A DNA stretch of 64,000 nt. Source: Chloroflexota bacterium. GTDB taxonomy: Bacteria > Chloroflexota > Limnocylindria > Limnocylindrales > CSP1-4. A program made the translations under genes and the position numbers. The notes under the pieces were generated by a model. It saw only the letters and a program-made list of their open reading frames with translations. It was not told where the DNA came from and did no database searches. The stretch is taken from contig JAZJZX010000004.1 in assembly GCA_040389445.1 (NCBI GenBank), positions 36,696-100,695 on the forward strand, in the 5' to 3' direction. This document shows positions 1,677 to 60,854 of this stretch, one piece after another. The stretch's first letter is position 1. Each line of letters starts with the position of its first letter.

Positions 1677-1678
1677 CG

Positions 1679-4799: not shown

Positions 4800-5560
4800 G
4801 AGGCGCGCGTGATCTCGTCCGCGATCTTCCGCATCGCCACCGCGGCCACGCCTTCAGTCCGATCCAGGCCACCGAGCCATTGACGCTTCGAGTACCAGGC
4901 GCCGGCGAAGTCCTCGACGATTCGAGCCGCCTCGGATGCGTAGCGATCGACGCCATCGGTGAACAACTGAATCTCTGCCTCGGATCGGAGCCGTCCGTCG
5001 CCCCCGAGGAGATTGGCGGCCTCGTGGTCGGTGAAATACCGGAGCGAGCGGGAGAGGAGCCGGGCAAAGAACAGGTGGGCGAGCTGCGCGAAGCCTCGCT
5101 CGGTTGAGAACGAGTGGTAAGCCTGCCGCGCATCGTCCAGCCCGGAGAGGAAGAGGCTGCCGGTCTGCGACGTGATGGTCCGGGTCAGCGACTCCTGGAG
5201 AGCGCCGAGAGCGAACTCCGTGAAGATCGTTCGCTGACTCGTCGGTCCGAACCGGTTCTCGGCCTCGCGCAGGACGTTCCCGAGAAGACCCAGGGCATCT
5301 TCGTTGCCCGTCACGGTGAAGCCGTAGCCGCGCAGGGCTTCGGCGAAGTCATCGCGACGTGACGCATCGGCCAGGAGCGCCATCACCCGGAGGCTCTCCA
5401 CGACGCCTGGGTCTTCGCCAGCCGCACGATAAGCCTTCTCGGCTGCGCCAACGACAGCGCGCGCTACGGTTCCGACGTCCACGTCAGGATCGTCCATGAG
5501 CCGGACGACGTGCGACCAGCGTCGCGTCTTAGGGAGCTCGCCGAGGCGAATGTGCCCCAT
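4796..5560 (-). CDS. Hypothetical all-alpha protein of ~254 aa, translationally coupled between hsdS and the QueC-like gene. Possible QatB-like partner or substrate.
   Basis: The ORF has protein-like composition. Its ATG at 5560 shares one base with the hsdS stop (TGATG), and its stop overlaps the QueC-like ATG (ATGA). No recognisable catalytic motif. After removal of the initiator Met the N-terminus is M-G-H... Confidence 0.5.
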   Translation of the reverse strand: MGHIRLGELPKTRRWSHVVRLMDDPDVDVGTVARAVVGAAEKAYRAAGEDPGVVESLRVMALLADASRRDDFAEALRGYGFTVTGNEDALGLLGNVLREAENRFGPTSQRTIFTEFALGALQESLTRTITSQTGSLFLSGLDDARQAYHSFSTERGFAQLAHLFFARLLSRSLRYFTDHEAANLLGGDGRLRSEAEIQLFTDGVDRYASEAARIVEDFAGAWYSKRQWLGGLDRTEGVAAVAMRKIADEITRAS

Positions 5561-6896: not shown

Positions 6897-8443
6897 TCAC
6901 CGAAGCCGAGCTCCCGCAGGTTCGCATCGATGAGCGCGTCGAGCCGCTGGCCCTCGGCGACCTGTTCGCGTAAGGTCGCGCCAAGCCTCGCCATCTTCTC
7001 GTCGAACGGCTCGGCGTCCTCCTCGGTGGCGGCAGCGCCGACGTAGCGGCCGGGGGTAAGCACGTGACCGTGCTTGCGGATCTCGTCGAGCGGGACGGAC
7101 CGGCAGAAGCCGGGCACGTCGGCGTACTCGCCGGCGCCCTCGTCGCCGCGCCAGGCGTGGTAGGTACCGGCGATCGTCGCCACGTCATCGTCGGTCAGTT
7201 CGCGGTGCGTTCGATCGACGAGCGAGCCCATCTTCCGGGCGTCGATGAAGAGCGTCTCGCCGCGGCGGTCGCGGAAGCGGCCGTTGCGCCGGTCGCGGGC
7301 GAGGAACCAGAGGCAGACCGGGATCTGGGTCGAGTAGAAGAGCTGGCCCGGCAGGGCGACCATGCAGTCGACGAGGTCAGCCTCGATGATCGCCTTGCGG
7401 ATCTCGCCCTCGCCCGACTGGTTGGTCGACATCGAGCCGTTGGCGAGGACGAAGCCGGCGATTCCGGTCGGCGCGAGATGGTGGATGAAGTGCTGGACCC
7501 AGGCGAAGTTCGCGTTGCCCGCCGGCGGCTCGCCGTACACCCAGCGCTTGTCGCCCTTCAGGAGTTCGCCCCGCCAGTCGCTGTCGTTGAAGGGCGGATT
7601 GGCCAGGACCCAGTCGGCCTTGAGGTCCGGGTGGCGGTCGTTGTGGAAGGTGTCGCCGTGGGCGATCTGGGCGTCGATGCCGCGGATCGCGAGGTTCATC
7701 GCGGCCAGCCGCCAGGTCGTGTAGTTGGACTCCTGGCCGTAGATGCTGATGTCGCCGAGCTTGCCCGCGTGGGCCTCGATGAACTTCTCGCTGCTCACGA
7801 ACATCCCACCCGAGCCGCAGCACGGGTCATACACGCGGCCCTTGTAGGGCGCCAGCATCTCGACGAGGATCCGGACGACGTGCGACGGCGTGTAGAACTG
7901 GCCGCCCTTCTTGCCCTCGGCGCTCGCGAACTGGGCGAGGAAGTACTCATAGACCCGACCGAGCGTGTCCTTCGCCCGGTCGGCGGGGGCTCCCAGCGCG
8001 ATGTCGGAGACGAGGTTGATGAGCTGGCCGAGGCGCGCCTTGTCGAGGCCGGGCCGGGCGTAGTCCTTGGGCAGCACGCCCTTGAGGGTCGGGTTGTCCC
8101 GCTCGATGGCGGCCATCGCGTCGTCGACGAGGGTGCCGATCGTGGGCTGGGGAGCGCTCGCCTTCAGGTGCGTCCAGCGGGCTTCCCTGGGGACCCAGAA
8201 GATGCTGACGGCCCGGTACTCGTCGGGGTCCTCGGGGTCGGCGCCAGCGGCGCGGTCGGCCTCGAGTTCGGCGTGCTTCGCCTCGAAGGCGTCGCTGATG
8301 TACTTCAGGAAGATCAGGCCCAGGACGACGTGCTTGTACTCGGCCGCGTCCATGTTGTTGCGCAGGGCGTCGGCGGTCTGCCAGAGGCGCGCCTCGAAGC
8401 TAACGGGAGCGGCGGTGTCCGGGCGGCCGGAGCCCCTTGCCAT
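6893..8443 (-). CDS. hsdM: Type I restriction-modification N6-adenine DNA methyltransferase (HsdM).
   Basis: 516 aa. The N-terminus reads [39 protein letters not shown], it carries the NPPFN catalytic motif, and it has a SAM-binding fold. Its ATG shares one base with the upstream DUF262 gene's stop (TGATG). Confidence 0.95.
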
Positions 8444-10728
8444 CAGATCCCCCCTCCAGCGACATCCGCAGGCCCCGCGTACCCCACAGCCACGAGCCGC
8501 TGCCTGGCCCGGTGGAGCGCCTCCTCGGAGAACAGGCCCTGAAACTCGGGACGAAGCGCCTGCGCTTCAACGGACAGGTCGAGGCGACCCTTTGACCAGA
8601 GTGCGACGAACCCCTCAGATGGGTCCGTGGCCTGTAGGAGTCGCTTGGCCGTTTCGAGACCTCCAATATCGGAGACCATCGACAGGAACCGCGACGCGTT
8701 GTATCCCGCCTCGCGCTTGGCTCGGTCGTGAACCTCGAGCATCGCCTGGTGGAAACGTTCAGCGGCAGCGGTTGAAGGCTCCGGCGCGACCTCCTCGGCT
8801 GAGGCAAGCTCCGGCGGCGCCATGAGGTAGCGCTTGAACGCGTCGGGCGTGGTGAAGACTCGGTATCCCAAGGCCGCGAGTCGACTGACTGCGGCGTCCT
8901 CGGCCTCGAACTCGAAAACGACTGGGTCGCTCAGACCCTCCTGGACTCCGTTCGGCCAGACGAGATCACCTACGATAATCAGCTCCTGAGTCTCGGGATC
9001 CGCGATCTCCTGGTCCACGTTGGGTTGAGAAATACCTTGTTGCCCAATCCAGGCCAGCAGCTCCGTCACGACTGGGTCCATCGCCTCCGCGACGTCTGGG
9101 GCGGCGCCAAGCTCCAGCTCGAGCGCTGTGTCGACGGGTGCGCCGGCCGCAGGATGGAGGAGATTCTCGAGCACGTGATTCGCTGCATCCGCCAGAAGGG
9201 CGCGCCTCGCCGCCAAAAAGTCCCGATACCGATCCACTTCCCACAACTGCTCGTCCATCGGGATCCACTGTGACTCGAGAGCCCCGGGATAGTCTGTGGC
9301 GATCTTCCGGAAGTAGTCGCGCGGCGCGCTGTCACTGATCGCGATGTTCGTGTCCTTCGTCAGGAAGCAGAAATTGGCGAGCGCGTTCACTTCGGATCGC
9401 TGGTAGTCGTGGCGATACAGGTGGGCCTTCGGGAAGATGTGGTGGATCTCGAGGGCTGCCCCCTTTCCGAGCATTCCGGCGGACAGGACTGGAAATGGTG
9501 CGCCCCAATCCCGTGCCCCTTGCATCCGCGTGAGGAGATACAGCATCGGGTAGAAGCGAGCGCCAAGGCTCCAGCCGGAGAAGTCAACGTCCCGAACGGT
9601 TAGGTCACCTCGCGAGAGCCGGATCTGTTGGATCAGGCGATCGATCGACGCCTCCGTACCATCGACGAGGTCCAGGTCCTGGTTCAATACCGTCTCAACA
9701 GAGCCGGCAAATCGGCCCCACAGGAAGCTCTGGATGTACCAGTACAGCAGCTTGTCCTGCTCGATCGCGCTGTGGAACTTGCCTCCGCGTGTCGACAAGT
9801 ACCGAGTCATCACCGGGAACGCGTACCGCCCACCAAGGACGCGGTCATGGTCCAGTCCAAGACGCGCGCCAATGACGTTCAGCAAGACATTCGCGGATTT
9901 CGTCGCGTTCTTGAGACCCTCCTGGAATTCCGATGTGGTCACTCCAGTAAGGGCGGCGAACTTCGCTTCACCGGCTACGATCGTGGTGATGTTGCGGAGA
10001 AGCCAGTCGAGCTGGAAGTGGAAGCCACGGTCCGACCAGTACCGGAGGACCTTCTTCATCTCGTCGCGTGCGTCGGGCCACGACGCGCAGATCCGGGCGA
10101 GGGCGAGATCACCTTTCGAGAGCTTGGTGCCCCCACTGTTCACTCGATTGAAGATGTCGACAACCACCTCGATCGTCTTGTCCTCACCGACGACCTTCTC
10201 GACGTGGAACTCAATGTCTTTGACAGCGTCAAGCCGCGTCAGCCGATTGACGTAGTCCCCGGCGCGCAAGCTCAGGTCCGGGTTTTCGAAGACAGCCTTG
10301 ATCGACTCGGCGACCCCCTCCGTCATCAGCTGCGTGACGCTGATCCAGCGGGGGTTGCCCTTCATCTTTGCCGGCGCGTAGAACTCGAAGACCTCGTCCT
10401 CGATGTCGAAATGCAAGCCGGTGAAGGCGCTGGCGTCGCCGTCGAAGAACCGCGGGGCACGGCCGCGGATGATTCCGTACAGGGTCGTGACGCGTTGCTG
10501 GCCATCAAGCAGAAGGTCAACAGTGCCGGCGGCAAGCATCCCGCCACCTCGCACGTCAGCCACCTCGGTCGGCGTCACCCAGACCATGAGACTTCCGACC
10601 GGATACTTCCGGTAGAGGGACGTCATGAGCCCCCGAACCTGGTCGCGGTTCCAGACGTAGCCACGCTGGAACTCGGGCAGGGCGATGGATCCAAGGTCGA
10701 TCTGGCTCAGGATGGTCCGGACGTCCAT
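8443..10728 (-). CDS. GmrSD-family Type IV restriction enzyme-like protein (DUF262 ParB-like NTPase domain plus DUF1524 HNH/His-Me nuclease domain).
   Basis: The N-terminal motif is [16 protein letters not shown] (the DUF262 QR-x-x-W motif) and the C-terminal motif is [13 protein letters not shown] (DUF1524/HNH-like). The likely start is ATG at 10728, with AAAGGA 5 nt upstream; the ORF track extends to 10890 through an unconvincing N-terminus. The gene is translationally coupled to hsdM. Confidence 0.8.
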
Positions 10729-10807
10729 GCGTATCCTTTCTGCAATGTCACGTAGGGTACGGCGCGTCGTGCCGGACACACGGATTGTCCTGACGAAGCG
10801 TCGATCG

Positions 10808-11776
10808 TCATTCGCGGACGTCTCCGTCTCGTCTTCGGTCGAATAGGATTTCGTAATCGCGCTCGGTCCAAAGCTCACCCCATCGATCACCTGTCTCGAT
10901 CGGCGCGATGTCGTTGCCGATCAGTCGCTCAACGTCGCCGCCGTAACTAGAGATGTTGTAGAGGCGAGTCTGTACGCGGAGCATCGCGCGCAGGCCATCC
11001 GTGACGATCGGCAATCGCCGATCGAGGTCGACCGCAAGAAACTCGACCGGCAGGATGTGACCGAACCGCTCATTGAAACGCCGGGGGGCGTCCATCGCGT
11101 ATTGGTATGAGCCCGTTACGCGAAAGACTGATAGTCGGCCCCACTCTGGCAGGTTCGGAGCCACGACAACGTCACCGAGCCGCATTCCGTCGTGTGCCGA
11201 TGTTCGCATCCGCCGCGACCGCCACGTCATCCGCTGCTCGTCGCTGAGCTCGCCTCCACGACGGACCACCTCGGCGACCACGTCGAGGTTCATCTCGGGG
11301 TTCCAGCCCCAGCCCTGGCGAAGGCGTCCGCGTTGGGCCTCGGCCCAAATGTAGGGCCGCTCCCAGGGGCTAGTTCGCATCACCCAGTACCCGCGACCTG
11401 CGAGCCCCGGAGTTCCCATTGGCCTCGCGCTGACGGGCGCGCGGGAGCCCGCTCGGGGCGCCGATTTCGGGCGCCCGAGTGCTGCGAGAGCACCGTCGAC
11501 GTCCCCAGCGAGATGCGATGGGAGCTCCTCCCGGTCGACCGTTCCAAATACACCGAGGACCGCATTACGAGTAGCGGGATTGCGCCCTATTCGCTCGAGC
11601 ACACGGATCGCGAACGCTGCAAGTCGCTCGTCGCCGAGCCAATCAGTCATCGCATCGATAGCCATCTCGCCGTGTGCAGCGATCGCATCACGAAGCTCGA
11701 TCCGCGCCATCGAGTCAGCCTCTCGGGCACTCGCGAGCAGGTCGTCCAGTGCTGCTGTGGTCATCGGTAGCCGCAT
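10808..11776 (-). CDS. Hypothetical 322-aa protein first in the defense array: a helical N-terminal half, a low-complexity linker, then a YW-rich C-terminal domain that could be a PUA/EVE-like modified-base reader.
   Basis: Complete ORF with varied amino-acid composition (W/Y/F rich: GYWVMRTSPWERPYIWAEAQRGRLRQGWGWNPEM...). It lies 80 bp upstream of the GmrSD-like gene on the same strand. The fold assignment is speculative. Confidence 0.4.
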   Translation of the reverse strand: MRLPMTTAALDDLLASAREADSMARIELRDAIAAHGEMAIDAMTDWLGDERLAAFAIRVLERIGRNPATRNAVLGVFGTVDREELPSHLAGDVDGALAALGRPKSAPRAGSRAPVSARPMGTPGLAGRGYWVMRTSPWERPYIWAEAQRGRLRQGWGWNPEMNLDVVAEVVRRGGELSDEQRMTWRSRRMRTSAHDGMRLGDVVVAPNLPEWGRLSVFRVTGSYQYAMDAPRRFNERFGHILPVEFLAVDLDRRLPIVTDGLRAMLRVQTRLYNISSYGGDVERLIGNDIAPIETGDRWGELWTERDYEILFDRRRDGDVRE

Positions 11777-23118: not shown

Positions 23119-23253
23119 GGGAGCAGGCGTGGCCGCGCGCGGTCCATTTCGGGCCCGCCCGGCCGCGTCACCTCGCGTTCCGCCGTCGGGCCCGTCCGGC
23201 CCGGAGCTCGTCAGTCAGGCCGGGCGTCCCAGGGCCGCGGCTACACTGCGCGC

Positions 23254-24360
<1,107 letters not shown>

Positions 24361-26939: not shown

Positions 26940-28442
26940 TCACGCGTCCTCGCGCTTCGTGCGCGTCGCCCGCTCCGCGCGCGGGGCGCGCTCCGCCTGC
27001 CCCGTCCGGTCCGGCCACGCATAGCCGGCCCACGGGTCGTAGTCCGGATCCAGCGGCTCCTGGGGCGGCCGCGACGCCTCCGAAACGTGAATGAGATTGA
27101 CCCGAACGCGGTACCACAAGGACGAGCGGCCGCGCATTCCGTCCACCAGCACGTCGGCCGGCTCCAGCGCGGCGGCGGCGTCCGGCCATCGCGCCTTCCA
27201 GCGCTCGAGGCCCGCGAGCGCCTCCTCCTTCGACTTCGCCCGCGAGATCTCGATGACCGGTACCGACGACCGCCGCCGTCCCGTCGGCGTCGGCCGCGTT
27301 CCGGAACCCGCTCCCGGGACGCCACCGCCAGCGGCCGCGGCGGCCTCTCGCGCTGCCTGGGCCGCGGTAAACCGGCGTTCCATCGCCGCCCGCGACTTCT
27401 CGCGCTCCGCCGCCGCCTGCGGCGTGTCGTACGCCGCGGTCGCGCGACGCTGGCGGGAGGGCTGGACGCGCGGCGGCTCGCCCGCCTGCTTGCGGTAGTT
27501 CGGCGGCCACGGGGCATCGCCCAGACCCTCGGCCTCATCCCGCCGGGACAGGTCCAGCAGCGCATCCAGCGAGCCCACCGCATCGTCGATGCCCGCGCCC
27601 GGATCGCCGATCGCGGCGAACCGCGCGGGAACCGTCGCCACCGTGAACGCCTCGGCCTCGCAGGTCGGGAGCTCGTCCCAGGTCAGCGGCGTCGAGACGC
27701 GCGCATCCGGCAACGGCCGGACCGAGTAGGCGGACGCCACGGTCCGGTCCTTGGCGTTCTGGTTGTAGTCGAGGAACACCCCGTGGCGCTCCTCCTTCCA
27801 CCACTTGGAGGTCGCGATCCCGGGCGCCCGCCGCTCCACGTCCCGGGCCAGGGCAAGGGCCGCCCGCCGGACCTCCGGGTATCCCCAGCGCCGCTCGATT
27901 CGCACGTTGATGTGGATCCCACGCGAGCCGGAGGTCTTCGGCCAACCGACGAGGCCCACGGCCTCGAGGGATTCCTTCGCGACCATCGCGACATCCCGGA
28001 TCTGCGCCCACTCGATCCCCGGAACGGGATCCAGGTCCACCCGCAGCTCGTCGGGATGATCGAGATCGTCGGCTCGAACCGGGTGCGGGTTCAGGTCCAG
28101 GCAGCCGAGGTTGACGATCCAGGCGAGGCCGGCGGCATCATCGAGGACGATCTCGTCGGCCGTCCGCCCGGACGGGAACGACAGCGTCGCCACCCGCAAC
28201 CATTCCGGCCGGTTGTCCGGGGCTCGCTTCTGGAAGAAGGCCTCGCCGCTCGCCCCGTTGACGAATCGCTTGAGCGCCATGGGCCGCCCCCTGACGCCTC
28301 GCAGCGCCCCGTCGGCCACGGCCAGGTAGTACCGGACGAGGTCCAGCTTCGTGATTCCGGCCGCCGCGAAGAAGATCTTGCCCGGGTTCGTGATCGTGAC
28401 CTCATGGTCATTGATCCGAAGCACCTCCGGCTGCGCTTTCAT
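26940..28442 (-). CDS. LigD polymerase/primase domain (PolDom) protein, standalone, with a C-terminal extension.
   Basis: The sequence reads MKAQPEVLRINDHEVTITNPGKIFF...WPKTSGSRGIHINVRI...HGVFLDYNQNAKDRTVASAYSVRP, a typical LigD-Pol. The start is the internal ATG at 28442; the ORF-track portion upstream overlaps the convergent plus-strand gene. Confidence 0.8.
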   Translation of the reverse strand: MKAQPEVLRINDHEVTITNPGKIFFAAAGITKLDLVRYYLAVADGALRGVRGRPMALKRFVNGASGEAFFQKRAPDNRPEWLRVATLSFPSGRTADEIVLDDAAGLAWIVNLGCLDLNPHPVRADDLDHPDELRVDLDPVPGIEWAQIRDVAMVAKESLEAVGLVGWPKTSGSRGIHINVRIERRWGYPEVRRAALALARDVERRAPGIATSKWWKEERHGVFLDYNQNAKDRTVASAYSVRPLPDARVSTPLTWDELPTCEAEAFTVATVPARFAAIGDPGAGIDDAVGSLDALLDLSRRDEAEGLGDAPWPPNYRKQAGEPPRVQPSRQRRATAAYDTPQAAAEREKSRAAMERRFTAAQAAREAAAAAGGGVPGAGSGTRPTPTGRRRSSVPVIEISRAKSKEEALAGLERWKARWPDAAAALEPADVLVDGMRGRSSLWYRVRVNLIHVSEASRPPQEPLDPDYDPWAGYAWPDRTGQAERAPRAERATRTKREDA

Positions 28443-28484
28443 CGGTGAGACGATACCCCCTCGACATCGTCGCTCCCAACCCGG

Positions 28485-29723
28485 ATGATCGACGGGCACC
28501 AGGACGGAGCCATGCAGAACCGAGCCGAACCCGCCTGCCTCATCATCGCCGACATCGCCGGCTACACCGGCTACATGGCCGGTGTCGAGCTGGACCACGC
28601 GCAGGACATCCTGGCCGATCTGATGGACACCGTCGTCGGCACGCTCCGACCGCCGTTCCGGCTGGCCAAACTCGAGGGCGATGCGGCGTTTGCCTATGTC
28701 ATGGCGGAGACCGTGGACGGGTCGGCACTCCAGGACACCGTCGAGCGCACCTACTTCGCCTTCCGGCGGCGGCTGCGCGACATCAAGCAGGCGTCGCGCT
28801 GCGAGTGCAACGCCTGCATCCTCATTCCCAGCCTGGACCTGAAGGTCGTGGTCCACCACGGGCTCATCGCGCGACATCGAATCGCCGGCTGGGAGGAACT
28901 CGTCGGGGCCGCCGTGATCCTGGTCCATCGACTCCTCAAGAACCAGGTTGCGGAGGCGACCGGGTTCAAGGCCTATGCCCTGTACACGCAGGACTGCCTC
29001 ACGGCCGCCGGGATCGACCCCGAGGTCCAGGGCCTGAGGCGCCACGTCGAGACAACCGACATCGCGGGTGACGTGACGGTCTGGCTGCGGGACCTTGAAG
29101 CAGCGTGGATGGCCGATCAAACCGGTCACCGGCTCAGCGTGACCGACAAGTCGGCCTATCGGACGTACGTCACGGAGTCGGCCGCGCCGCCGATGCTCGT
29201 CTGGGAGTACCTCACGTCGCCGATCCGGCGGCCGCAATGGGGCCCGGGGGTGACGGCCGTCCTCGAAGCATCGCCGTCCGGTCGACGCGGCGCCGGGACG
29301 GTGAACCATTGCATGCACGGCAAGGACGCCGTGCTCGAGGAGATCCTCGACTGGCAGCCAGGACAATCCTGGACGACGCGGTCCACGATGCCGATGCCGA
29401 ACACGCCGGGCCTGTTGCTGACCGACGAACTGGAGGCGCTGCCGGACGGAGGGACGCGCGTCACCTCGCGCGTCGGCAGGCCGAAGCCGCGCGATCGGGC
29501 GGCCTTCGAAGTGTTCTTCCCGATGGTGGAACCGCTCCTGCTGGAGGCCATGAGCGGCATCAGCCGGGCCCTGGCGGAGGAGCTCGAACGTCGGGCGATG
29601 GAGGCCGAGCCGGAGCCGGCGCTGCCGACGACGAGCGCGCGATTCCTGACGCAGCCCGTCGCGAAGGCGGGGAGTGCGGTGGGGAGTGTCGATTCCGCAC
29701 CGTGGAGTTCGTCGTCTGGATAG
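28485..29723 (+). CDS. Hypothetical two-domain protein: an N-terminal class-III nucleotidyl-cyclase-like (DUF2652-like) domain and a C-terminal SRPBCC-like domain.
   Basis: ACLIIADIAGYTGYM...LAKLEGDAAFAYV resembles the cyclase-homology metal-binding segments. The C-terminal MLVWEYLTSPIRRPQWGPGV is START/Bet v1-like. Confidence 0.45.
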   Translation: MIDGHQDGAMQNRAEPACLIIADIAGYTGYMAGVELDHAQDILADLMDTVVGTLRPPFRLAKLEGDAAFAYVMAETVDGSALQDTVERTYFAFRRRLRDIKQASRCECNACILIPSLDLKVVVHHGLIARHRIAGWEELVGAAVILVHRLLKNQVAEATGFKAYALYTQDCLTAAGIDPEVQGLRRHVETTDIAGDVTVWLRDLEAAWMADQTGHRLSVTDKSAYRTYVTESAAPPMLVWEYLTSPIRRPQWGPGVTAVLEASPSGRRGAGTVNHCMHGKDAVLEEILDWQPGQSWTTRSTMPMPNTPGLLLTDELEALPDGGTRVTSRVGRPKPRDRAAFEVFFPMVEPLLLEAMSGISRALAEELERRAMEAEPEPALPTTSARFLTQPVAKAGSAVGSVDSAPWSSSSG

Positions 29724-29775
29724 GACGGCCGGGCCGTCCTCCTCACGAAGCACCTGCCGAACGGAGACCCGATCG

Positions 29776-30165
29776 ATGCAATACCTGCTCCTGATCTACC
29801 AGGCCGAGGTGGGCGCCCGGACCGCGGCCGACGACGAGGCCATGGCCACTGAACTCGCCGCCTACGGCGCCTTCACGGTCGAGACCCGCGAGCGCCACCA
29901 GTTCATCGCCGGCGAGGCGCTCGAGCCGACGTCCACGGCCACCTCCGTGCGCATTCGCGACGGGCATCTCGCGGTCACGGACGGTCCGTTCGCAGAGACC
30001 AAGGAGGCCCTCGGCGGGTTCTACCTGCTCGAGTGCGCCGATCTCGACGAGGCCATCGAGATGGCGGCCAAGATCCCTGCCGCAAAGCGCGGGACCATCG
30101 AGGTCCGGCCGATCTGGCAGCTTCCGGCGGACTACGCCATGGCGGGCGGAGGCGAGGCGAGCTGA
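29776..30165 (+). CDS. YciI-like (DGPF domain) protein.
   Basis: The sequence [13 protein letters not shown]...[28 protein letters not shown] is a typical YciI/DGPF family member, and it lies next to an ECF sigma factor. Confidence 0.75.
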
Positions 30166-51413: not shown

Positions 51414-51557
51414 GGCATGTCTGTGACGAAGGGGATTGTCCGGCGAGCAGGAAGCCCGACATTGCAGGCCGGCCACAGGAGCAGTGGAAAGGCGTGATGG
51501 GCCACCTGATGTACGGTGTCGCAACAACGAAGAGGCAGGTGTGAGGGAGCACTGAAC

Positions 51558-52781
51558 ATGAAGCAGGTCACCGTGTACGGAGCTCCCTGGTGCCCGGACT
51601 GCCGCCGCTCAAAGGCGTTCCTCATGGAGCAGCGGATCCCCTTCACCTGGGTCGACATCGACGCCGACCCCGAAGGATTGCGCTTCGTCGAGGATCTCCA
51701 GCATGGCGGACGGACGATCCCGACGATCGTCTTCCCGGACGGTAGCCACTTGCTCGAACCGTCGAACGTGGAACTTGCCGAGAAGCTGGGACTCCAGCTT
51801 CGGGCGGAGCGGATGATCTACGACGTGCTGATCCTCGGCGGCGGACCGGCCGGACTCTCGGCGGCGATCTACGCGGCCAGGGAGGGCCTCGAGGCGCTCG
51901 TGATCGAGCGCGGTGCCCTCGGAGGTCAGGCCGGCACGACCGACCGCATCGACAACTATCCGGGGTTCGCTGAAGGGATCGGCGGCGCAGAGCTGGCCGA
52001 TCGACTGATCGCGCATGCGCGGCGCTATGGGGTCGAACTGCTGTCCGCGGTCGAGGTCTCCAGCATCCGGCGCGAATCCGATTGCGTGATGGTCACCTGT
52101 TCGTCGGGCCACATGTATGGCGCCGACGCCGTGATCGTCGCCACGGGATCGCAGTACCGCCGTCTGGGTGTCCCCGGCGAGAGCGGGCTCATCGGGCTCG
52201 GCGTCCACTACTGCGCAACCTGCGACGGTCCGTTCTACCGTGGCGCAAAGGAACTGGTCGTGATCGGCGGCGGTAACTCTGCGCTCGAGGAGTCGCTCTT
52301 CCTCGCCACGATCGCAGACAAGGTCACGATCCTCACGCGCGGCGAGCTTCGGGCAAGCGAGCTGGTGAAGGATGCGGTCCGCTCCAACCCGAAGATCGAG
52401 GTCCACACTGGGATGGACATCCTCGATTTCGAGCGGGCGGACGGGCGCCTCGGCGCGATTCTCACGCGCGAGCGGGCGACCGGTCACGATCGGCGCTTCG
52501 AGCCGGAGGCGGCATTCGTCTTCGTCGGCCTCGACCCGAACAGCCAATTCCTGCGCGGCTCGCTGGATCTGGACGAGCAGGGCTTCGTCGTGACGAATGA
52601 CGTCTACGCAACCTCTCTCGATGGCGTCTTCGCGGCCGGCGACGTCCGGGCGGGAGCCACCAAGCAGGTCGGCAGCGCCGCGGGCGAGGGGATCGCCGCT
52701 CTGCTCTCGGTCCGACGCTCGCTGGAGCGCCGCCATCTGAAGGCCTCGAGCATCATGGATGAGGGCGCCGTCCAAACCTAG
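51558..52781 (+). CDS. Thioredoxin-disulfide reductase with an N-terminal glutaredoxin/NrdH-like domain fused to it.
   Basis: The N-terminus reads MKQVTVYGAPWCPDCRRSKAFL (a CPxC glutaredoxin-like fold), followed by the TrxR body (LILGGGPAGLSAAIYAAREG, redox-active CATCDG, GGGNSA). Confidence 0.85.
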   Translation: MKQVTVYGAPWCPDCRRSKAFLMEQRIPFTWVDIDADPEGLRFVEDLQHGGRTIPTIVFPDGSHLLEPSNVELAEKLGLQLRAERMIYDVLILGGGPAGLSAAIYAAREGLEALVIERGALGGQAGTTDRIDNYPGFAEGIGGAELADRLIAHARRYGVELLSAVEVSSIRRESDCVMVTCSSGHMYGADAVIVATGSQYRRLGVPGESGLIGLGVHYCATCDGPFYRGAKELVVIGGGNSALEESLFLATIADKVTILTRGELRASELVKDAVRSNPKIEVHTGMDILDFERADGRLGAILTRERATGHDRRFEPEAAFVFVGLDPNSQFLRGSLDLDEQGFVVTNDVYATSLDGVFAAGDVRAGATKQVGSAAGEGIAALLSVRRSLERRHLKASSIMDEGAVQT

Positions 52782-53055
52782 GGGGTCCTCTCACGGGCGG
52801 ACGGGTTCCGCACGACCAGGGACCTTGGTGTCGGGAGTGGCATTGAGTTCGCGGGGCTCCTCGACGCCGTCGCTGGCCTCCCGGAGATCGGTGCGCTCGA
52901 GCGCTCGAACCGGGACTGAGAGCGGAGTCCTTCCTGGCCCAAGCGTGATACGGGGCACAGCGGACGGCCACGCCCAGTGGCACTGTCGATCGATCAACGT
53001 ACGACGGCGGTTCCCGCGCGAGAGTGCGGGTGCCGATTTCTGGAGCAACGCACCC

Positions 53056-53829
53056 ATGACGACCGAGACCCGCGGGCTTGTCCGCATCGAACCCGCCGCG
53101 AAGCGCGTTCGCGCCTTCCTCGGAGACACGGCAGTCTTCGACACCAGGCGCCCGACCCTGGTCTGGGAGGGCCCGCACTTCCCCGTGTACTACGTTCCGG
53201 CCGAGGACGTCACCGCGGACGTGCTCGTCCCCTCCGATCACATTGAGCGGTCGCCGAGCCGGGGCGAGTCCCGTTTCTGGTCGGTCCGGGTGGGCGACCG
53301 TTTGGCCGAGAACGCGGCCCGGCAGTATCCGGACTCCCCGATCGAGGAGCTCCACGGCCTGATCCGGTTCGAGTGGGGCGCCATGAACGCGTGGTTCGAG
53401 GAGGACGAGGAGGTCTTCACGCACGCGCGGGATCCCCACCATCGTGTCGACATCCTGCGCAGCTCCCGTCATGTCGAGGTGATCCTGAACGGCGTCACCG
53501 TTGCCGATTCTCATCGTCCGACGCTGCTGTTCGAGACCGGGTTGCCGACGCGCTACTACCTGCCACTGACCGATGTCCGAACCGAGCTCCTGCGCCCCTC
53601 GGGATTGGCGACAGGCTGTCCATACAAGGGAACGGCGGCCTACTGGTCGCTGGAGGTGCAGGGCGAGCGGTTCGAGGACGTCGTGTGGACGTACCCATCG
53701 CCCCTTCCGGAGAGCGCCCGGATCGCAGGGCTCGCCTGCTTCTACAATGAGCGGGTCGACATCCTGGTCGACGGCGTGCTCGAGGAGCGGCCGTTGAGTC
53801 CCTTCTCTCGTCGAGCGACGGCCGCATAG
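53056..53829 (+). CDS. DUF427 domain protein (two tandem DUF427 repeats).
   Basis: The segments VRIEPAAKRVRAFLGDTAVFDTRRPTLVWEGPHFPVYYVP and HHRVDILRSSRHVEVILNGVTVADSHRPTLLFETGLPTRYYLP are duplicated DUF427 units. Confidence 0.6.
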   Translation: MTTETRGLVRIEPAAKRVRAFLGDTAVFDTRRPTLVWEGPHFPVYYVPAEDVTADVLVPSDHIERSPSRGESRFWSVRVGDRLAENAARQYPDSPIEELHGLIRFEWGAMNAWFEEDEEVFTHARDPHHRVDILRSSRHVEVILNGVTVADSHRPTLLFETGLPTRYYLPLTDVRTELLRPSGLATGCPYKGTAAYWSLEVQGERFEDVVWTYPSPLPESARIAGLACFYNERVDILVDGVLEERPLSPFSRRATAA

Positions 53830-53903: not shown

Positions 53904-54662
53904 ATGCCGGAATCCCTGGTCACGCGCCTGATCGCCGTCGGGATCGACATCGGTGGAAGCGGGATCAAGGGCGGGGCGGTGGACCTTGCGACGGGTCAAC
54001 TGCTCGGTGAGCGACTCCGACAGCCGACTCCCGTGCCCTCGACGCCGGATGCGGTCAGCGGGGTGGTGGCCGAGCTTGTCGCCCGGATCGCCGGTCCAGG
54101 GCCGGTCGGCGTGACCTTCCCCGGCGTCGTTCGGGCCGGCGTCATCGAGACGGCCGCGAACCTCGATCCGTCGTGGATCGGGGTCGATGCCGCGACCCTG
54201 TTCGGGCGCAGGCTCGGCCGGCCGGTTGTCGTGCTGAATGATGCCGATGCTGCCGGGATCGCCGAGATGTCGTTCGGGGCAGGCCGTGACCGCGCCGGCG
54301 TGGTCATGATGGTCACCCTCGGGACCGGGATCGGCAGTGCCCTGTTCCTCGATGGCAGGCTCGTCCCGAACACGGAGTTCGGGCACATCATCGTATCCGG
54401 CACGGACGGTGAGAAGCTTGCCGCAGCAAGTGTTCGTACGGCCTCGAATCTCACCTGGGACGCCTGGTCGGAACGTCTCAACGCATACCTGGCGCGGCTG
54501 GAGAGCCTGCTCTCCCCGGACCTGATCATCATCGGGGGCGGGATCAGCCGGGACCATGCCGAGTTCATGCCCCGCCTGCGAGCGCGGGCGGAACTGCTCC
54601 CCGCCCAGCTGTTCAACGACGCCGGCATCGTGGGTGCCGCACTCGCAACCACCGTCGGGTGA
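53904..54662 (+). CDS. ROK-family sugar kinase (polyphosphate glucokinase PpgK-like).
   Basis: It has VGIDIGGSGIKGG and LGTGIGSAL motifs, and at ~250 aa it is of PpgK length. Confidence 0.75.
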   Translation: MPESLVTRLIAVGIDIGGSGIKGGAVDLATGQLLGERLRQPTPVPSTPDAVSGVVAELVARIAGPGPVGVTFPGVVRAGVIETAANLDPSWIGVDAATLFGRRLGRPVVVLNDADAAGIAEMSFGAGRDRAGVVMMVTLGTGIGSALFLDGRLVPNTEFGHIIVSGTDGEKLAAASVRTASNLTWDAWSERLNAYLARLESLLSPDLIIIGGGISRDHAEFMPRLRARAELLPAQLFNDAGIVGAALATTVG

Positions 54663-54959
54663 CCTGCGGACCCAAGGTCGGGTGAGCGGCGGGGACCACA
54701 GCGGACGCGCCGCTCTGCCTCGAGGGTGGCCAGGGACACAGCCACCGACCCGTACGCTTGCTGCTCAGCCCGGTCTCGAACAAGAGAAAGCGGGCCCCAG
54801 AGGACGTTTCATGACGACGCTCGTCGCACAGCAGCTCAACCGGCCGGCACTCCATGCGAAGGTGATCCCGGCTTCGATCGGATTCAGGGCCGCCAGCTCC
54901 GTGGATCCCGCCCCGACGGTTCGTGCTGACCCGAGGAGCTCGTCTCGGGGCGCTTCAAG

Positions 54960-56366
54960 GTGACGTCCGCGCCGCGTGAGGCCGCCGACGTTCTCGTGAT
55001 CTTCGGGGCCACCGGCGACCTGGCCCGCAAGAAGCTGCATCCGGCGCTCTATCGCCTGACGACCCGTGGTCGCCTCGCGATCCCTGTCGTCGGGGTCGCG
55101 CGCTCCTCGTGGAGCGACGATCGGCTCCGTGCCTACGCCCGCGAGGCGGTCCGGACCCGGTATGGGGCCGTCCCGGACGCCGACCTCGACGCGTTCGCCG
55201 GCCAGGTTTCGTATGTGAGTGGCGACTACGGCGATCCCGCGACATACCAGCGCCTTCGAGCGAAGCTGGGTCCTGCGCGTCGCCCCATCTTCTATCTGGC
55301 GATTCCGCCCAGCATGTTCGACCAGGTGATCAGCGGCCTCATGGCGGCCGGTCTCCACGCGGGTGCCCGCGTGGTCGTCGAGAAGCCGTTCGGGCGCGAC
55401 CTGGCCTCTGCCCGGGAGTTGAACGCTTGCCTACACCGTGCATTCGACGAGCGCTCGATCTACCGGATCGATCACTATCTCGGCAAGGAAACGGTCCAGA
55501 ACCTGCTGGCCTTCCGTTTTGCCAACGCCCTCCTGGAACCGGTCTGGAATCGCCGCTACGTCTCGAGCGTGCAGATCACGATGGCCGAATCGTTCGGGGT
55601 CGAGGGCCGGGGGGCCTTTTACGAGGAAGTCGGCGCCCTGCGTGACGTGGTCCAGAACCACCTGCTCCAGGTGGTCGGCCTGCTGGCCATGGAGCCGCCG
55701 GTCGGAGCCGACGCGGACGCCCTGCGCGACGAGAAGGTCAAGGTCTTTCGCGCGACGACCTCGGTCGATCCGTTGGCCGTCGTGCGCGGGCAATACGATG
55801 GCTACCGTGCCGAGGCCGGCGTAAGGCCGGATTCGGATGTCGAGACCTTTGTCGCACTCCGACTCGAGATCGAGTCGTGGCGCTGGGCCGGGGTTCCCTT
55901 CTTCCTGCGGGCAGGAAAACGTCTCGGCGAAACCACCCTCGAGGCCGTCATCGAGTTCAAGGAGCCGCCCCGACTCCTGTTCGCCGAGGCGGGCACGCCG
56001 ATGCCGCACCCCAACCACCTCCGGTTGCGGCTCGGCGGTGGCAATGAGGGGATCGAGTTGTCGCTCCAGGCCAAGATCCCGGGCGAAACCATGCAGACGC
56101 GCCCAGTACCGCTCGCGTTCTCCTATGAGCAGGCGCTTGGCGAGCAGACCGAGGCATACGAGCGACTCCTGTTTGACGCGATCGAGGGCCGACAGGCGCT
56201 GTTCGCCCGTCAGGATGGGGTCGAGGAGTGCTGGCGCATCGTCGAACCGGCGCTGCGACCGGACCGCCCGGCGCTTGCCTACCCGTCCGGGACATGGGGT
56301 CCTGCTGCCGCAGATGCGCTGATCCTCCCCGTCGGCAGTTGGCACACCTCCGAGGCGGTCCGATGA
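54960..56366 (+). CDS. zwf: Glucose-6-phosphate 1-dehydrogenase.
   Basis: It has the NADP-binding motif [15 protein letters not shown], the active-site motif RIDHYLGKE, and DVVQNHLLQ. The start codon is GTG. Confidence 0.9.
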
Positions 56367-57043
56367 CCGCAGCGGGACCCTCGGTCGCGTTCCTGTTCGA
56401 TGTGGACAACACGTTGCTCGACAACGATCGAGTCCGGCGCGACCTGTCCGCGGCCATCGCCGGCGCGGTCGGGCCTGATCGAGGGGCGCATTTCTGGGAG
56501 CTCTATGAGGACATCCGGCGCGAGTGCGACTACGTCGACTTCCCGCACACCCTCGAGCGCTTCACGCTGACATATCCGGAGGAGCCGGGCTTCCCGGCCC
56601 TGGCCGACGCCGTGCTCTCCTATCCGTACCGGTCCGCCGCGTTCCCCGGAGCTCATGACGTGCTGCGTCGTGCCGGGTCGGTCGGTCGGGCCGCGATCCT
56701 CTCGGACGGCGACCCGGTGTACCAGCCCGCCAAGATCGCCCGGGCGGGCTTTGCCGAGGAGGTCGGCGGGCGCGTGTATGTGTTCGCGCACAAGGAAGAC
56801 CACCTGGCCGAGGTGCAGCGACGGCTGCCCGCGGACCTGTACGTGCTGGTCGACGACAAGCCTCGGATCCTGGCTGCCGCAAAAGACCGGCTGGGGGATC
56901 GCCTCATCACGCTGCACGTGTGCCAGGGCCGGTACGCCCATGCCGCGGAGCACGATGCCTTTCCGGCGGCGGATCGGTCCGTGGACGCCATCGCCGACAT
57001 CCTGGCCCTCGACCTCACTACGCTTCTGGAGTACAGCCGATGA
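56363..57043 (+). CDS. HAD-superfamily hydrolase.
   Basis: It has HAD motif [13 protein letters not shown]. The ATG overlaps the zwf stop (ATGA) and the stop overlaps the tal ATG (ATGA). Confidence 0.7.
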
Positions 57044-58125
57044 ATCCCACCGCAACCCTTCGGGCGACCGGACAGAGCCTGTGGCTCGACAACATCACCC
57101 TTGATCTGCTCGCCAGCGGGACGCTCGAGCGCTACATCCGCGAGCTTTCCGTGACGGGCCTCACCTCGAACCCCACCATCTACGACAAGGCGATCGAGGG
57201 GACCGACGCCTACGACGGCCAGATCATCGCGGGTCAGGCCTCGGGCCTTGCCCCGGAGGACCTCTTCTTCGAGCTCGCACTCGACGACCTGCGGCGGGCG
57301 GCCGATGCCTTCCGGCCCGTCTTCGACCGGTCCGGCGGAGTCGATGGCTGGGTGTCCCTCGAGGTCTCGCCCCTGCTTGCGCACGACATGGCGGCAACCG
57401 TCGGCGAGGCCATCCGTCTCCATGCCCGGGCCGACCGCCCCAACCTCTTCATCAAGATCCCCGGTACGCAGGCGGGCCTGCTCGCCGTCGAAGAGGCGAT
57501 CCTCGCCGGCGTTCCCGTCAACGTGACCCTCCTGTTCACGGCCGGACACTACCTGGCCGCGGCCGAGGCGTACCTCCGGGGCATCGAGCGGCGCATCGAG
57601 GCCGGCCGTGACCCGAATGTCGCGTCCGTCGCGTCGGTCTTCATCAGCCGCTGGGACTCGGCGGTGGCCGGCATGGTTCCGGCGAACCTGCAGACGACCC
57701 TCGGTCTGGCCGTGGGTCGGGCGATCTACGCCGCCTATCGTCGGCTGCTCGCCTCCGATCGGTGGCAGCGGCTCGAGAACGAGGGCGCGCGTGCACAGCG
57801 GCTCCTCTTTGCGAGCACGGGGACCAAGGATCCGAAGGCCTCGGATACCCTGTACATCGCCGGGCTCGCAGCACCTCATACCGTCAATACGATGCCCGAA
57901 GGCACCCTCCTGGCCTTCGCGGATCACGGGGCCGTCGGGACGGTACTGCCGGCCGACGGCGGCGACGCCGGGCAGGTTCTCGCGGCCTTCGCTGCCGCCG
58001 GCGTCGACATCGAGGAGCTGGGCCGACGTCTTCAGGGTGATGGGGCGAGCGCGTTCGTCCAGTCCTGGGAACAGCTGCTCGCCTGCATCGAAGAGAAGAG
58101 CGCCATCGTGGGCCAGTCCCGATGA
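57040..58125 (+). CDS. tal: Transaldolase (actinobacterial long form).
   Basis: The sequence [42 protein letters not shown]...[10 protein letters not shown] matches transaldolase. Confidence 0.9.
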
Positions 58126-60854
58126 GCACACGGCAGGGTCCGGCCATCGCCGGGCTCCGTGCGCGACCGGCGTGGGCTGCATTGGGCAGGCATCACGCCG
58201 AGATCTCGGAGCTCCATCTCCGTGACCTCTTCGCGGCGGACCCCGAGCGCGGGCGGCGGCTGGTCGTCGAGGCGGCCGGGCTGTACCTCGACTACTCCAA
58301 GAACCGCGTCACCGACGAGACACTGGCCCTGCTCGTCCGGCTGGCCGAGGAGTCCGGGCTGCGCGACCGAATCGAGGCGATGTTCGGGGGCGCGCGGATC
58401 AACGTCACCGAGGATCGAGCGGTCCTCCACACCGCCCTTCGGGCCCCGCGCGAGGCAACCGTCCTCGTCAATGGCCAGAACGTCGTCCCCGGCGTCCATG
58501 CGGTCCTCGACCGGATGGCAGCCTTCGCCGACGGTGTGCGCAACGGGACATGGCTGGGTCACTCCGGTCGACCGATCAGGAATGTCGTGAACATCGGAAT
58601 CGGCGGGTCGGACCTCGGTCCGGTGATGGCCTACCGGGCGCTCCGGGCGTACGCGCAGCGAGACCTGACGTTCCGCTTCGTATCCAATGTCGACGGCACC
58701 GACTTCGTCGAGGCGACCCGCGACCTCCGGCCGGACGAGACCCTGTTCATCGTCTCGTCGAAGACCTTCACCACCGTCGAGACCATGCGCAACGCGGCGG
58801 ACGCGAGGCGCTGGCTCCTGGCCGAGCTGGGCGATGAGGTTGCCGTGGCCCGCCACTTCGCAGCCGTCTCAACGAACGCCGCCGCCGTATCGGAGTTCGG
58901 CATCGACACCGCCAACATGTTCGGCTTCTGGGACTGGGTCGGCGGCCGATACTCGATGGAGTCGGCCATCGGGCTGTCGACCATGATCGCGATCGGCCCC
59001 GAGCACTTCCGGGCCATGCTGGCGGGCTTCCATGAGATGGACGAACACTTCCGGACGGCGCCCTTCGATGCCAACCTGCCGGTCATCCTCGGGTTGCTCA
59101 CCGTCTGGTACGCGAACTTCTTCGGCTCGCAGACGGTGGCCGTTCTCCCCTACGACCAGTACCTGGAACGCTTCCCGGCCTACCTCCAGCAACTCACCAT
59201 GGAGTCGAACGGCAAGAGCGTCACCCTCGACGGCACGCGGGTGGATTACGAGACCGGCCCCATCTACTGGGGCGAGCCGGGCACCAACGGGCAGCACTCG
59301 TTCTACCAGCTCATCCATCAGGGGACGCGTCTCATTCCGGCCGACTTCATCGGCTTCTGGCAGACGAACAATCCCCTCGGCGACCATCACGACCTGCTGA
59401 CGGCAAACCTCTTCGCGCAGTCCGAGGCGCTGGCCTTCGGCAAGACCGTCGACCAGGTCCGCGCGGAGGGAACCCCCGACCGGCTGGTCCCGCATCGCGT
59501 CTTCGAGGGCAATCGTCCCTCGAACACCATCATCGCGGAGCGTCTGACACCCGCGACGCTTGGCCGGCTGGTGGCGCTCTACGAGCACAGCGTGTTCACG
59601 CAGGGAACCATCTGGAACCTCGACTCATTCGATCAGTGGGGGGTCGAGCTGGGCAAGGTCCTGGCCACGCGTGTGGCTGCCGAGCTGACGGCCACCGACG
59701 AGACCGCCGTGGCCCACGACTCCTCGACGAACGCCTTGATCGCTCGCTACCGCAGCATTCACCGGGCCGGTAGCCGGCTCGCATCAAGGGTTCCGGGCGG
59801 TGTGCCCGAGCCACGAAGGAGCACGCACATGCAACTCGGAGTGATCGGACTTGGCCGGATGGGCGGCAACATCGTCAGGCGCCTCGAGCGGGCCGGCCAC
59901 ACCACGGCCGGCTACGCGCGACGCCCCGAGGTCGTCGCGGCCCTGACCGATTCAGGCATGCGCGGTGCGACATCGCTGGCCGACCTCGTGGCGGGCCTGG
60001 CGAAACCGCGCGCCATCTGGCTGATGGTCCCGGCGGCGGCCGTCGATTCGACCCTCGAGGCGCTTGTGCCGCTCCTGGACGCGGGCGACGTCATCATCGA
60101 CGGCGGCAACTCCTACTACCGCGACGACATCCGGCGCTCGAAGGAGCTCGCGACGCGCGGCCTCCAGTACCTCGATATCGGCACGAGCGGCGGTGTCTGG
60201 GGTCTCGAGCGCGGCTTCAGCCTGATGATCGGCGGTGACACGGCCACGGTCCAGCGGCTTGATCCGATCTTCGCTGCCCTCGCCCCGGGAGCAGAGGCGG
60301 CGCCGCCGACGGCCGGCCGCGATCGTCGCGGCGGCACCGCCGAGGAAGGCTACCTGCACTGCGGGCCGAGCGGCGCCGGCCACTTCGTCAAGATGGTTCA
60401 CAACGGCATCGAATACGGGTTGATGGCCGCCTATGCAGAGGGGCTCAACATCCTCCGTCACGCCAACGCCGGGGCCGGCCAGCGCTCGATTGATGCCGAG
60501 ACGACCCCCCTCCGCGAGCCCGAGCTCTACCGCTACGAGTTCGACCTCGCCGACGTGGCCGAGGTCTGGCGGCGTGGCAGCGTGGTCGCGTCCTGGCTCC
60601 TCGACCTCACCGCGAGTGCCCTCGCCAAGAGCCCGCAGCTGGACGGCTTCTCGGGCCGGGTGTCGGACTCGGGCGAAGGCCGCTGGACGATTGTTGCCGC
60701 AGTCGACGAAGGCGTGCCCGCGCCGGTCCTCACCACGGCCCTCTTTGCGCGCTTCAGCTCGCGTGGCGAAGCGGACTTCGCCGACCGGATGCTCTCGGCG
60801 ATGCGTCTGGAGTTTGGCGGACACCTCGAGAAGGGAGGCGATCCGGCTTCCTGA
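58122..60854 (+). CDS. pgi: Glucose-6-phosphate isomerase continuing in frame, without a stop, into a short-form 6-phosphogluconate dehydrogenase-like (Gnd/YqeC-type) domain. Apparently a Pgi-Gnd fusion.
   Basis: The Pgi signatures include [22 protein letters not shown] and WGVELGK. After a ~19-aa linker comes [19 protein letters not shown] (a Rossmann 6PGDH N-terminus), followed by 6PGDH C-terminal motifs. There is no in-frame stop between the two parts. The SD sequence AAGGAG lies 7 nt upstream of the internal ATG at 59827. Confidence 0.8.

Follow-up and report, generated by a model that had tools for sequence, protein, structure and literature searches.

The pgi and gnd genes of the window (the whole 64-kb stretch of DNA that was analysed) are read as one open reading frame (ORF) of 910 aa (58122..60854, forward strand). 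Very probably this ORF is the result of a single-base deletion, private to the window sequence, at the third position of the Gly550 codon, and is an accident rather than a selected design, because the two enzymes do not catalyze consecutive steps of the pathway and the linker between them shows no adaptation to coding. No evidence contradicting a one-base deletion was found in the analysis. A real, recent mutation and an error of the consensus or the assembly appeared about equally probable as its source, each with an even chance or slightly less. The features of the region are listed in Table 1.

The fused frame comprises Pgi (residues 1-550), a 19-aa linker (S551-H569) and a short 6-phosphogluconate dehydrogenase (6PGDH, residues 570-910). 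A preliminary description of this DNA had reported such a continuous frame with a 19-aa linker, and indeed no in-frame stop codon followed the Pgi C-terminus in the pgi frame of the window. The PGI half was matched over its full length by PF00342 in the Pfam search (positions 1-486 of 486, 714 bits) and by the NCBIfam model NF001211 (positions 7-542 of 544 on residues 13-546, 837 bits, cut-off 492). The 6PGDH half matched TIGR00872 (positions 1-296 of 299, 401 bits, cut-off 297) and PRK09599 (NF007161; positions 1-299 of 302 on residues 570-904, 450 bits, cut-off 271). By these full-length matches above curated cut-offs, the two parts are predicted to be a glucose-6-phosphate isomerase and a short gnd-like 6PGDH, both with complete domains. 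The N-terminal Rossmann GxGxxG motif of the 6PGDH part sits at the internal ATG. The Rossmann-type assignment given earlier was correct, but the part has a length of 341 aa instead of about 330 aa; likewise, the Shine-Dalgarno sequence AAGGAG with its 7-nt spacing was described correctly, but the ATG lies at 59829-59831 and not at 59827.

Table 1. Features of the pgi-gnd region and the genes upstream (positions in the window)
Feature	Position	Strand	Remarks
zwf, glucose-6-phosphate dehydrogenase, 468 aa	54960..56366	+	predicted start GTG 54960; TIGR00871 540 bits, PF00479, PF02781
HAD-like hydrolase, 226 aa, conserved operon member	56363..57043	+	weak PF00702 match; ATGA overlap on both sides
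tal, transaldolase, 361 aa	57040..58125	+	NF002881 436 bits, PF00923
pgi part of the fused ORF, complete glucose-6-phosphate isomerase	58122..59771	+	codons 1-550; NF001211 837 bits
One-base deletion site	59769..59771	+	single gap column, window versus five related contigs (DNA alignments A1, A2)
Ancestral pgi stop TAG, now out of frame	59771..59773	+	lies at offset 2 relative to pgi; opposite TGA/TAG of the relatives in the alignments
Former pgi-gnd intergenic spacer, now 19-aa linker	59772..59828	+	aligns with the 55-56-nt spacers of the relatives
gnd Shine-Dalgarno sequence AAGGAG	59816..59821	+	7 nt before ATG; read directly
gnd, short gnd-like 6PGDH, 341 aa, complete	59829..60854	+	PRK09599 450 bits, TIGR00872 401 bits

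The alignments with five related contigs revealed the difference at the junction: all five read CCGG-N-TGA/TAG, whereas the window reads CCGG-TAG. The base missing in the window is the third position of the last pgi sense codon (Gly550). In the relatives this codon is GGG, GGT or GGA followed by the stop, while the window has GGT, with the T taken from the old stop. The possibility that a stop codon had been lost or mis-sequenced, raised in the preliminary description together with an out-of-frame TAG near 59770, agrees with this result, as the window is one base short directly before that TAG compared with all five contigs aligned. The TAG was the only stop within 59740-59835 when all three forward frames were checked, and in the alignment the pgi stop of contig L083 is also TAG. 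At the deletion site, GGGCCGG|TAGCCGGC, the missing base belongs to a short run of G (or T). With an indel at the junction that is not a multiple of 3 and the ancestral stop out of frame, the window ORF is, judged from its sequence, an indel-derived (frameshift) chimera.

The former spacer has 57 nt in the window and is stop-free in the pgi frame. Its composition differed from that of the flanking genes: GC3 was 0.68 in the linker versus 0.885 in pgi and 0.862 in gnd, the rare codons TCA, CCA and AGG (twice) were present, and codon-phase GC was flat over 59760-59819. This codon-bias test is weak alone with only 19 codons. In the alignments the linker corresponds to former intergenic DNA. The motif GAAGGAG-N7-ATG also marks the start of the stand-alone gnd genes of L084 and L085, and the internal ribosome-binding site (RBS) is by this comparison the ordinary ancestral gnd RBS. 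We calculated that a 19-codon stretch with the base composition of the linker is stop-free 67% of the time; as the frame must also fit, which happens in 1 of 3 cases, about 22% of one-base indels at the junction would give a fusion.

The deletion pushes the ancestral TAG out of frame, and the pgi frame then crosses the former spacer, which is stop-free by chance and includes the gnd RBS, and enters gnd in frame. If the cell carries the deletion, translation of pgi should continue into gnd and yield a Pgi-6PGDH polypeptide of 98.6 kDa. The retained AAGGAG-N7-ATG could still initiate a free 6PGDH of 36 kDa.

In every relative examined, pgi and gnd were two genes. Each of the 17 closest homologues of Pgi shares 81-89% identity with it and stands alone, with 550 aa (563 aa with a longer start call), as judged by length for all 17 and by sequence for the six that were read. 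These six end in ...RYR-x-x-R-x-G* at the Gly matching residue 550 of the window, four of them with ...RSIHRAG*. The pgi part was 86-89% identical over 550/550 aa to the stand-alone Pgi proteins P0001 and P0005, which stop right after the matching Gly. In the contigs L001, L002/L086, L084 and L085, pgi (550/563 aa) and gnd (341 aa) are distinct genes 55-56 nt apart. In L086 and L085, gnd was called as a gene of its own from the same ATG, and the window gnd shared 89% identity with it over 341/341 aa. The comparison of orthologs proposed in the preliminary description gave the outcome named there as refuting a true fusion, two genes with a stop after ...ARYR..., in the 17 closest Pgi homologues and in every related pgi-then-gnd locus; in none of 82 related loci did a stop-free frame span pgi and gnd. 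Adjacency of pgi and gnd is widespread across phyla.

When the same base was deleted in silico in the closest relative, L001, an ORF of 910 aa resulted. The same deletion in L086 and L084 gave only 563 and 655 aa, because the spacers of these contigs place gnd in another frame. We concluded that the fusion is a trivial consequence of spacer length.

The searches did not reveal a second case. A search of 1.84 billion representative proteins gave, among its best 150 matches, no protein matching both halves of Pgi-6PGDH, and exact-product look-ups for the 910-aa ORF, for gnd (341 aa) and for tal (361 aa) returned no second copy. A metagenome scan with a junction pattern permitting either state had no matches; as this pattern should match the L001 sequence, the scanned collection does not contain those contigs. 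A scan with a lineage-specific 24-mer downstream of the deletion site also gave no matches. In a genome-contig search for the same lineage, the best identity among the matches listed was 75%. Pgi matches farther off (about 78% identity) were labelled Chloroflexota, Roseiflexaceae and Gaiellaceae. The matches of a literature search for a Pgi/6PGDH fusion concerned, judged by title, unrelated subjects.

The genes upstream of the fused ORF are conserved. Compared with L086, full-length zwf showed 86% identity, the HAD-like hydrolase 82% over 226/226 aa (gene at the same position) and tal 83% over 361/361 aa. ATGA overlaps connect zwf with the HAD gene (56363), the HAD gene with tal (57040) and tal with pgi (58122). 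The three overlaps had been described before, together with the view that the layout is unusual; the former are real, but the same gene order and the same three 4-nt overlaps are found in L086. Due to the 4-nt ATGA overlaps and the conserved order, zwf-HAD-tal-pgi-gnd can be considered a putative coupled pentose-phosphate operon, with the coupling itself inferred. In the relatives tkt is located upstream of zwf; it is absent from the window. A split tkt, and with it a second frameshift, was considered for the ORFs 51510-52781 and 52741-53829 and dismissed, because both ORFs (a glutaredoxin-Pyr_redox protein and a DUF427 protein) have complete domains and the window has no tkt.

If the missing base is due to a sequencing, consensus-polishing or assembly error, the true sequence in the organism is GGN-TAG, and Pgi (550 aa) and 6PGDH (341 aa) are two proteins, as in the relatives. 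We rate the chance of such an artefact as a little below one half. A single base was lost in a short G (or T) run in the G/C-rich context CCGG/GCCGGC, where length errors of short runs are plausible, and the restored window sequence would end exactly like the four relatives with ...RSIHRAG*. Indel damage at this locus is also seen in other public assemblies: P0018 (727 aa) is garbled, in and out of the gnd frame, and pgi of L064 is broken near residue 453. The linker shows no sign of past coding selection. However, a random error is far likelier to break a gene than to hit the one codon that spares both enzymes, and this is the only detectable frameshift in 64 kb despite 2,240 G/C runs of 3 or more. 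About 12 genes of the 64-kb window were collinear in one frame with the proteins of relatives, and about 45 ORFs had complete Pfam domains with no split gene. Homology and domain checks detected no other frameshift in this survey, which covered genes with homologues or domains and in which intergenic or domain-free indels would go unseen. These checks replaced a codon-potential map of the whole window, because the map alone cannot separate frameshifts from overlaps of the ATGA type. The lack of other frameshifts speaks against an assembly riddled with indels and is slightly in favour of a real mutation. For a real and recent deletion, which we consider to have nearly even prospects, the cell would make the 98.6-kDa read-through protein, probably together with free 6PGDH, and the fusion would be tolerated (near-neutral) but not selected. 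The site lies at the edge of a spacer with several fixed indels among the relatives (gaps in A1 and A2), and a frameshift at the one position that keeps both enzymes complete is the pattern expected after purifying selection. Whole-enzyme C-terminal extensions of Pgi occur naturally (Pgi-ROK, Pgi-HAD), and a fused product need not harm. A real deletion is, on the other hand, opposed by the lack of a second sequence with the deletion in the exact-product look-ups and the two metagenome scans, and by the still intergenic composition of the linker; the deletion event would therefore be at best very young.

An evolved, selected bifunctional Pgi-6PGDH, with the internal RBS setting the ratio of fused to free 6PGDH, is very improbable. 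The intact ORF, its two complete domains and the strong Shine-Dalgarno sequence before the internal ATG would fit this explanation, and other fusions of pentose-phosphate enzymes exist, e.g., the Tal-Pgi family NF007080, besides Pgi-ROK and Pgi-HAD. But the fusion was conserved in none of the relatives examined, its architecture was absent from the best 150 of the 1.84 billion representatives, and the literature search was equally negative. In the pathway, Pgi and 6PGDH are separated by glucose-6-phosphate dehydrogenase and lactonase, and no channelling advantage is expected because the two steps are not consecutive. The bifunctional enzyme that the preliminary description gave as one of two alternatives is not supported as an evolved feature with a purposeful internal RBS, given an ancestral RBS, a linker of former intergenic DNA with low GC3 and rare codons, and the missing rationale for channelling. 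Comparison of the orthologues already refutes selection for a bifunctional enzyme to a large extent. Programmed recoding, in which a +1 ribosomal frameshift near CGG-GCC-GGT-AGC would restore termination at TAG so that normal Pgi is still made, has hardly any probability. It is favoured only by the old stop directly adjoining the deletion site. No slippery or stimulatory element was identified, and the relatives have a plain in-frame stop and therefore no conserved recoding signal. To our knowledge, programmed recoding has no precedent in the pgi gene family, and it was set aside for lack of a signal.

Should the deletion be real, for which the odds seem not quite even, an uncultured high-GC bacterium would express the 98.6-kDa Pgi-6PGDH beside free 6PGDH from the retained RBS. 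The window would then show a gene fusion only one mutation old, from which L001 is separated by exactly one base, and the first natural Pgi-6PGDH domain combination. Such a case would show the birth of a fusion in small: loss of one base turns the spacer into a linker, while the downstream enzyme continues to be made on its own from the old RBS. Even then, nothing points to a new biochemical capability. The case also calls for caution, as a clean two-enzyme ORF with an "internal RBS" can stem from one missing base beside a stop, and automated annotation would call such an ORF a new bifunctional enzyme.

The closest known systems are the loci of L001 (JGI 3300042191), L086 (GCA_974328095.1) and L084/L085, with 82-89% protein identity to the window. 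They share the gene order (ROK-tkt-)zwf-HAD-tal-pgi-gnd-FNT and the gnd start codon; L001 and L086 also share the Pgi C-terminus ...RYRSIHRAG, and L084/L085 the gnd RBS. Unlike the window, they have an extra base before the stop (GGG/GGT/GGA + TGA), so that Pgi ends at 550 and gnd is separate, and they carry tkt upstream of zwf. The ORFs of P0018 and L064 resemble the window in that pgi and gnd are read together or broken through single-base indels. P0018 runs through several frames with its conserved motifs destroyed, whereas the window has exactly one indel and two intact enzymes.

Among the fusions, the bifunctional transaldolase/phosphoglucose isomerase NF007080 (PRK09533) also joins a pentose-phosphate enzyme to Pgi, in a protein of about 950 aa. 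In contrast to the window ORF, this family is conserved, has a dedicated equivalog model and carries the partner N-terminal to Pgi. The window has tal and pgi as separate genes; with scores of 373 bits for Tal and 62 bits for the Pgi-Gnd ORF, both remained below the cut-off of 712 of this model. Pgi-ROK (L045 of Rhodanobacter glycinis MO64, and P0122) and Pgi-HAD (P0139) carry, like the window, a whole enzyme domain C-terminal to a complete Pgi, but with other partner domains. In L045, gnd directly follows the fused Pgi-ROK gene. At least two sequences have Pgi-ROK, and L045 among them comes from the genome of an isolate. The steps joined in Pgi-ROK follow each other, with Pgi acting after the glucokinase-like domain of the ROK family, whereas the fusion in the window is unique and joins steps that are not consecutive.

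The glucose-6-phosphate isomerase (Pgi) frame of the window has no stop codon past the conserved Pgi C-terminus and, as the preliminary description had stated, continues in a single frame into a 6-phosphogluconate dehydrogenase (6PGDH), resulting in an ORF of 910 aa. Residues 13-546 matched positions 7-542 of the 544-position profile NF001211, the equivalog for glucose-6-phosphate isomerase (837 bits), PF00342 was covered end to end, and residues 570-904 matched the short 6PGDH profiles PRK09599 (450 bits) and TIGR00872 (401 bits), both end to end. The reading frame confirmed the linker of 19 aa between the two parts, while the 6PGDH part comprises 341 aa and not about 330 aa. The computed masses are 98.6 kDa for the fused protein and 60.6 kDa and 36.0 kDa for separate Pgi and 6PGDH. 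The out-of-frame TAG described near the junction was located, and the Shine-Dalgarno sequence AAGGAG was found with the described spacing of 7 nt before the internal ATG, which starts 2 nt further downstream than the 59827 assigned before.

Although this ORF is present, an evolved bifunctional enzyme with an internal ribosome-binding site is not a real feature of the window. Comparison with related sequences indicates that two ordinary genes are joined by a private one-base deletion. The 17 best matches to the 910-aa product among 5.8 billion proteins were all stand-alone Pgi proteins with 81-89% identity and a length of 550 aa, or 563 aa with a longer start call. Four of the six Pgi sequences that we read end in one of two ten-residue forms, match the window exactly through residue 550 and then stop; the variants RYRSVDRDG, RYRSVRRAG and RYRASHRAG differ in the last residues only. 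On the contigs encoding the homologs P0001, P0005 and P0007 (L001, L002/L086, L084, L085), pgi is followed after 55-56 nt by gnd, which was called as a gene of its own (341 aa). Alignment of the junction DNA of the window and five related contigs revealed one gap column: the sequence is CCGG-G/T/A-TGA in the relatives, CCGG-G-TAG in the related contig L083 and CCGG-TAG in the window, where position 3 of the final Gly codon, directly before the TAG, is thus missing. The TAG is the ancestral pgi stop, and the stop codon was lost or mis-sequenced, as the preliminary description had offered as an alternative.

The linker also has the properties of a former spacer. Its 57 nt can be aligned to the spacers between pgi and gnd in the relatives, its third-position GC (0.68) equals the genomic average as compared to 0.885 for pgi and 0.862 for gnd, and the codon-phase GC signal is flat over 59760-59819. 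It contains the rare codons TCA, CCA and, twice, AGG, which occur 3, 1 and 5 times in 1,720 codons of neighboring genes. The motif GAAGGAG-N7-ATG is also present in L084 and L085, each with gnd as a separate gene, and gnd of the relatives aligns from residue 1 at the ATG of the window. The supposed internal ribosome-binding site is simply the ordinary one of gnd.

A random stretch of 19 codons with the composition of the linker lacks a stop in 67% of cases; since only 1 in 3 frames joins the genes, about 22% of one-base indels at the junction would produce a fusion. In silico deletion of the equivalent base resulted in an ORF of exactly 910 aa for L001, the closest relative, but of only 563 aa for L086 and 655 aa for L084, where the spacer puts gnd into another frame. 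That the genes are fused follows trivially from how long the spacer is in the sub-lineage of the window.

The preliminary description had considered the operon layout unusual. The three ATGA overlaps are indeed present (zwf/HAD at 56363, HAD/tal at 57040, tal/pgi at 58122), but the order zwf-HAD-tal-pgi-gnd-FNT and the three 4-nt overlaps are identical in L086, which also has ROK and tkt upstream of zwf. The layout is a clade feature and not peculiar to the window. The sole difference to L086 is the lack of tkt in the window, where ROK leads straight into zwf (53904-54960). In relatives, tkt (about 690 aa) is located between both genes (L086 1624-4621; L085 1504-6838), together with rpiB and a GH15 gene in L084 and L085; tkt was called at 528 aa in L084 and 691 aa in L085, both of which carry an identical Pgi protein. 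The HAD-like hydrolase, conserved between zwf and tal and overlapping each by ATGA, showed a weak Pfam match and no NCBIfam match. No pgl or opcA was seen in the cluster.

Elsewhere in the window, a defense island with lower GC3 occupies 1-10920 of the minus strand. Its hsdR and hsdS are separated by a QatC-like gene and three ORFs without a family, and no match to QatA, QatB or QatD was found. Genes for a DNA ligase and a LigD primase-polymerase, encoded on opposite strands at a distance of about 2.5 kb, represent a split NHEJ LigD arrangement.

Coordinates of features in the window and, where named, in related loci
Feature	Position	Strand	Remarks
hsdR N-terminus	1-888	-	cut by window edge
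Family-less ORF	801-1748	-
Family-less ORF	1679-2980	-
QatC-like protein	2964-4853	-	PADLOC QatC E 3.7e-57; partial Pfam QueC domain
Family-less ORF	4796-5863	-
hsdS	5560-7194	-
hsdM	6893-8566	-
GmrSD/HEC-05-like protein	8443-10920	-
ATP-dependent DNA ligase, stand-alone	23119-24360	+	DNA_ligase_A_M and _C domains
LigD primase-polymerase-domain protein, separate	26940-29795	-
ROK	53904-54662
HAD-like hydrolase	56363-57043		226 aa
Fused pgi-gnd ORF	58122-60854	+	910 aa, single frame
TAG	59771-59773
AAGGAG	59816-59821
ATG of gnd	59829
Broken pgi, L064	10001-11404		MFD04212 MAG; broken near residue 453
Pgi-ROK, L045	5056-7377		Rhodanobacter glycinis MO64; gnd 29 nt downstream

We consider it about equally probable that the private deletion is an error of the assembly and that it is a very young mutation. 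As expected for an error, one base was lost within a short run in G/C-rich context (CCGG/GCCGGC), and once repaired, pgi would end exactly as in four relatives (RSIHRAG and stop). Indel damage at this locus also occurs in other public assemblies: P0018 (ENA, 264-kb contig) is a 727-aa chimera without the Pgi C-terminus that enters and leaves the frame of gnd, and pgi is broken in L064. On the other hand, this is the sole frameshift detectable in the 64 kb, despite 2,240 G/C runs with a length of at least 3. Alignment to proteins of relatives was possible without a change of frame for about 12 genes (ROK, zwf, HAD, tal, gnd, FNT, HD, Pyr_redox, HTH, MGH1, adh, GTP cyclohydrolase II), essentially at full length except for the window-truncated MGH1, and about 45 more ORFs have complete Pfam domains with no split genes. 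A lone indel at the sole codon that spares both enzymes is the pattern expected from purifying selection, and the site borders a spacer in which relatives have fixed several indels. Whole-enzyme extension of Pgi, as seen with ROK and HAD partners, also favors a real mutation. Exact look-ups of the 910-, 341- and 361-aa products and metagenome junction scans found no independent copy of the lineage.

If the deletion is real, ribosomes on pgi, which is presumably coupled to zwf, HAD and tal by the ATGA overlaps, would miss termination and continue across the former spacer as far as the stop codon of gnd, while free 6PGDH could still arise from independent initiation at the retained ribosome-binding site. 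Nothing indicates selection for the fused state. A confirmed deletion would show a gene fusion at the moment of its origin.

Fusions of this kind were not found among the related loci and proteins searched. In 82 related loci (80 species-representative genomes, L001 and L002), gnd follows pgi on the same strand in some 20, mostly within about 250 nt, in Actinomycetota, Acidobacteriota, Pseudomonadota and others; this adjacency is common in many phyla. A stop separated the genes every time, even in three Streptomyces genomes with a gap of only 1-2 nt. An exhaustive HMMER search revealed no protein matching both halves in the best 150 of 1.84 billion cluster representatives, above all of which a fusion at least 45% identical in both halves would rank. 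Judged by titles, the literature search found no work on a Pgi-6PGDH fusion. Glucose-6-phosphate dehydrogenase and lactonase act between Pgi and 6PGDH; since the steps are not consecutive, fusing them has no obvious channeling benefit. A ROK-family, glucokinase-like domain is fused C-terminally to complete Pgi in L045 and P0122 (767 aa), which would link two successive steps in the entry of glucose, and a HAD hydrolase is fused likewise in P0139 (800 aa). Like the ORF of the window, these natural proteins extend Pgi C-terminally by a whole enzyme, and their existence suggests that the fusion in the window is likely tolerable.
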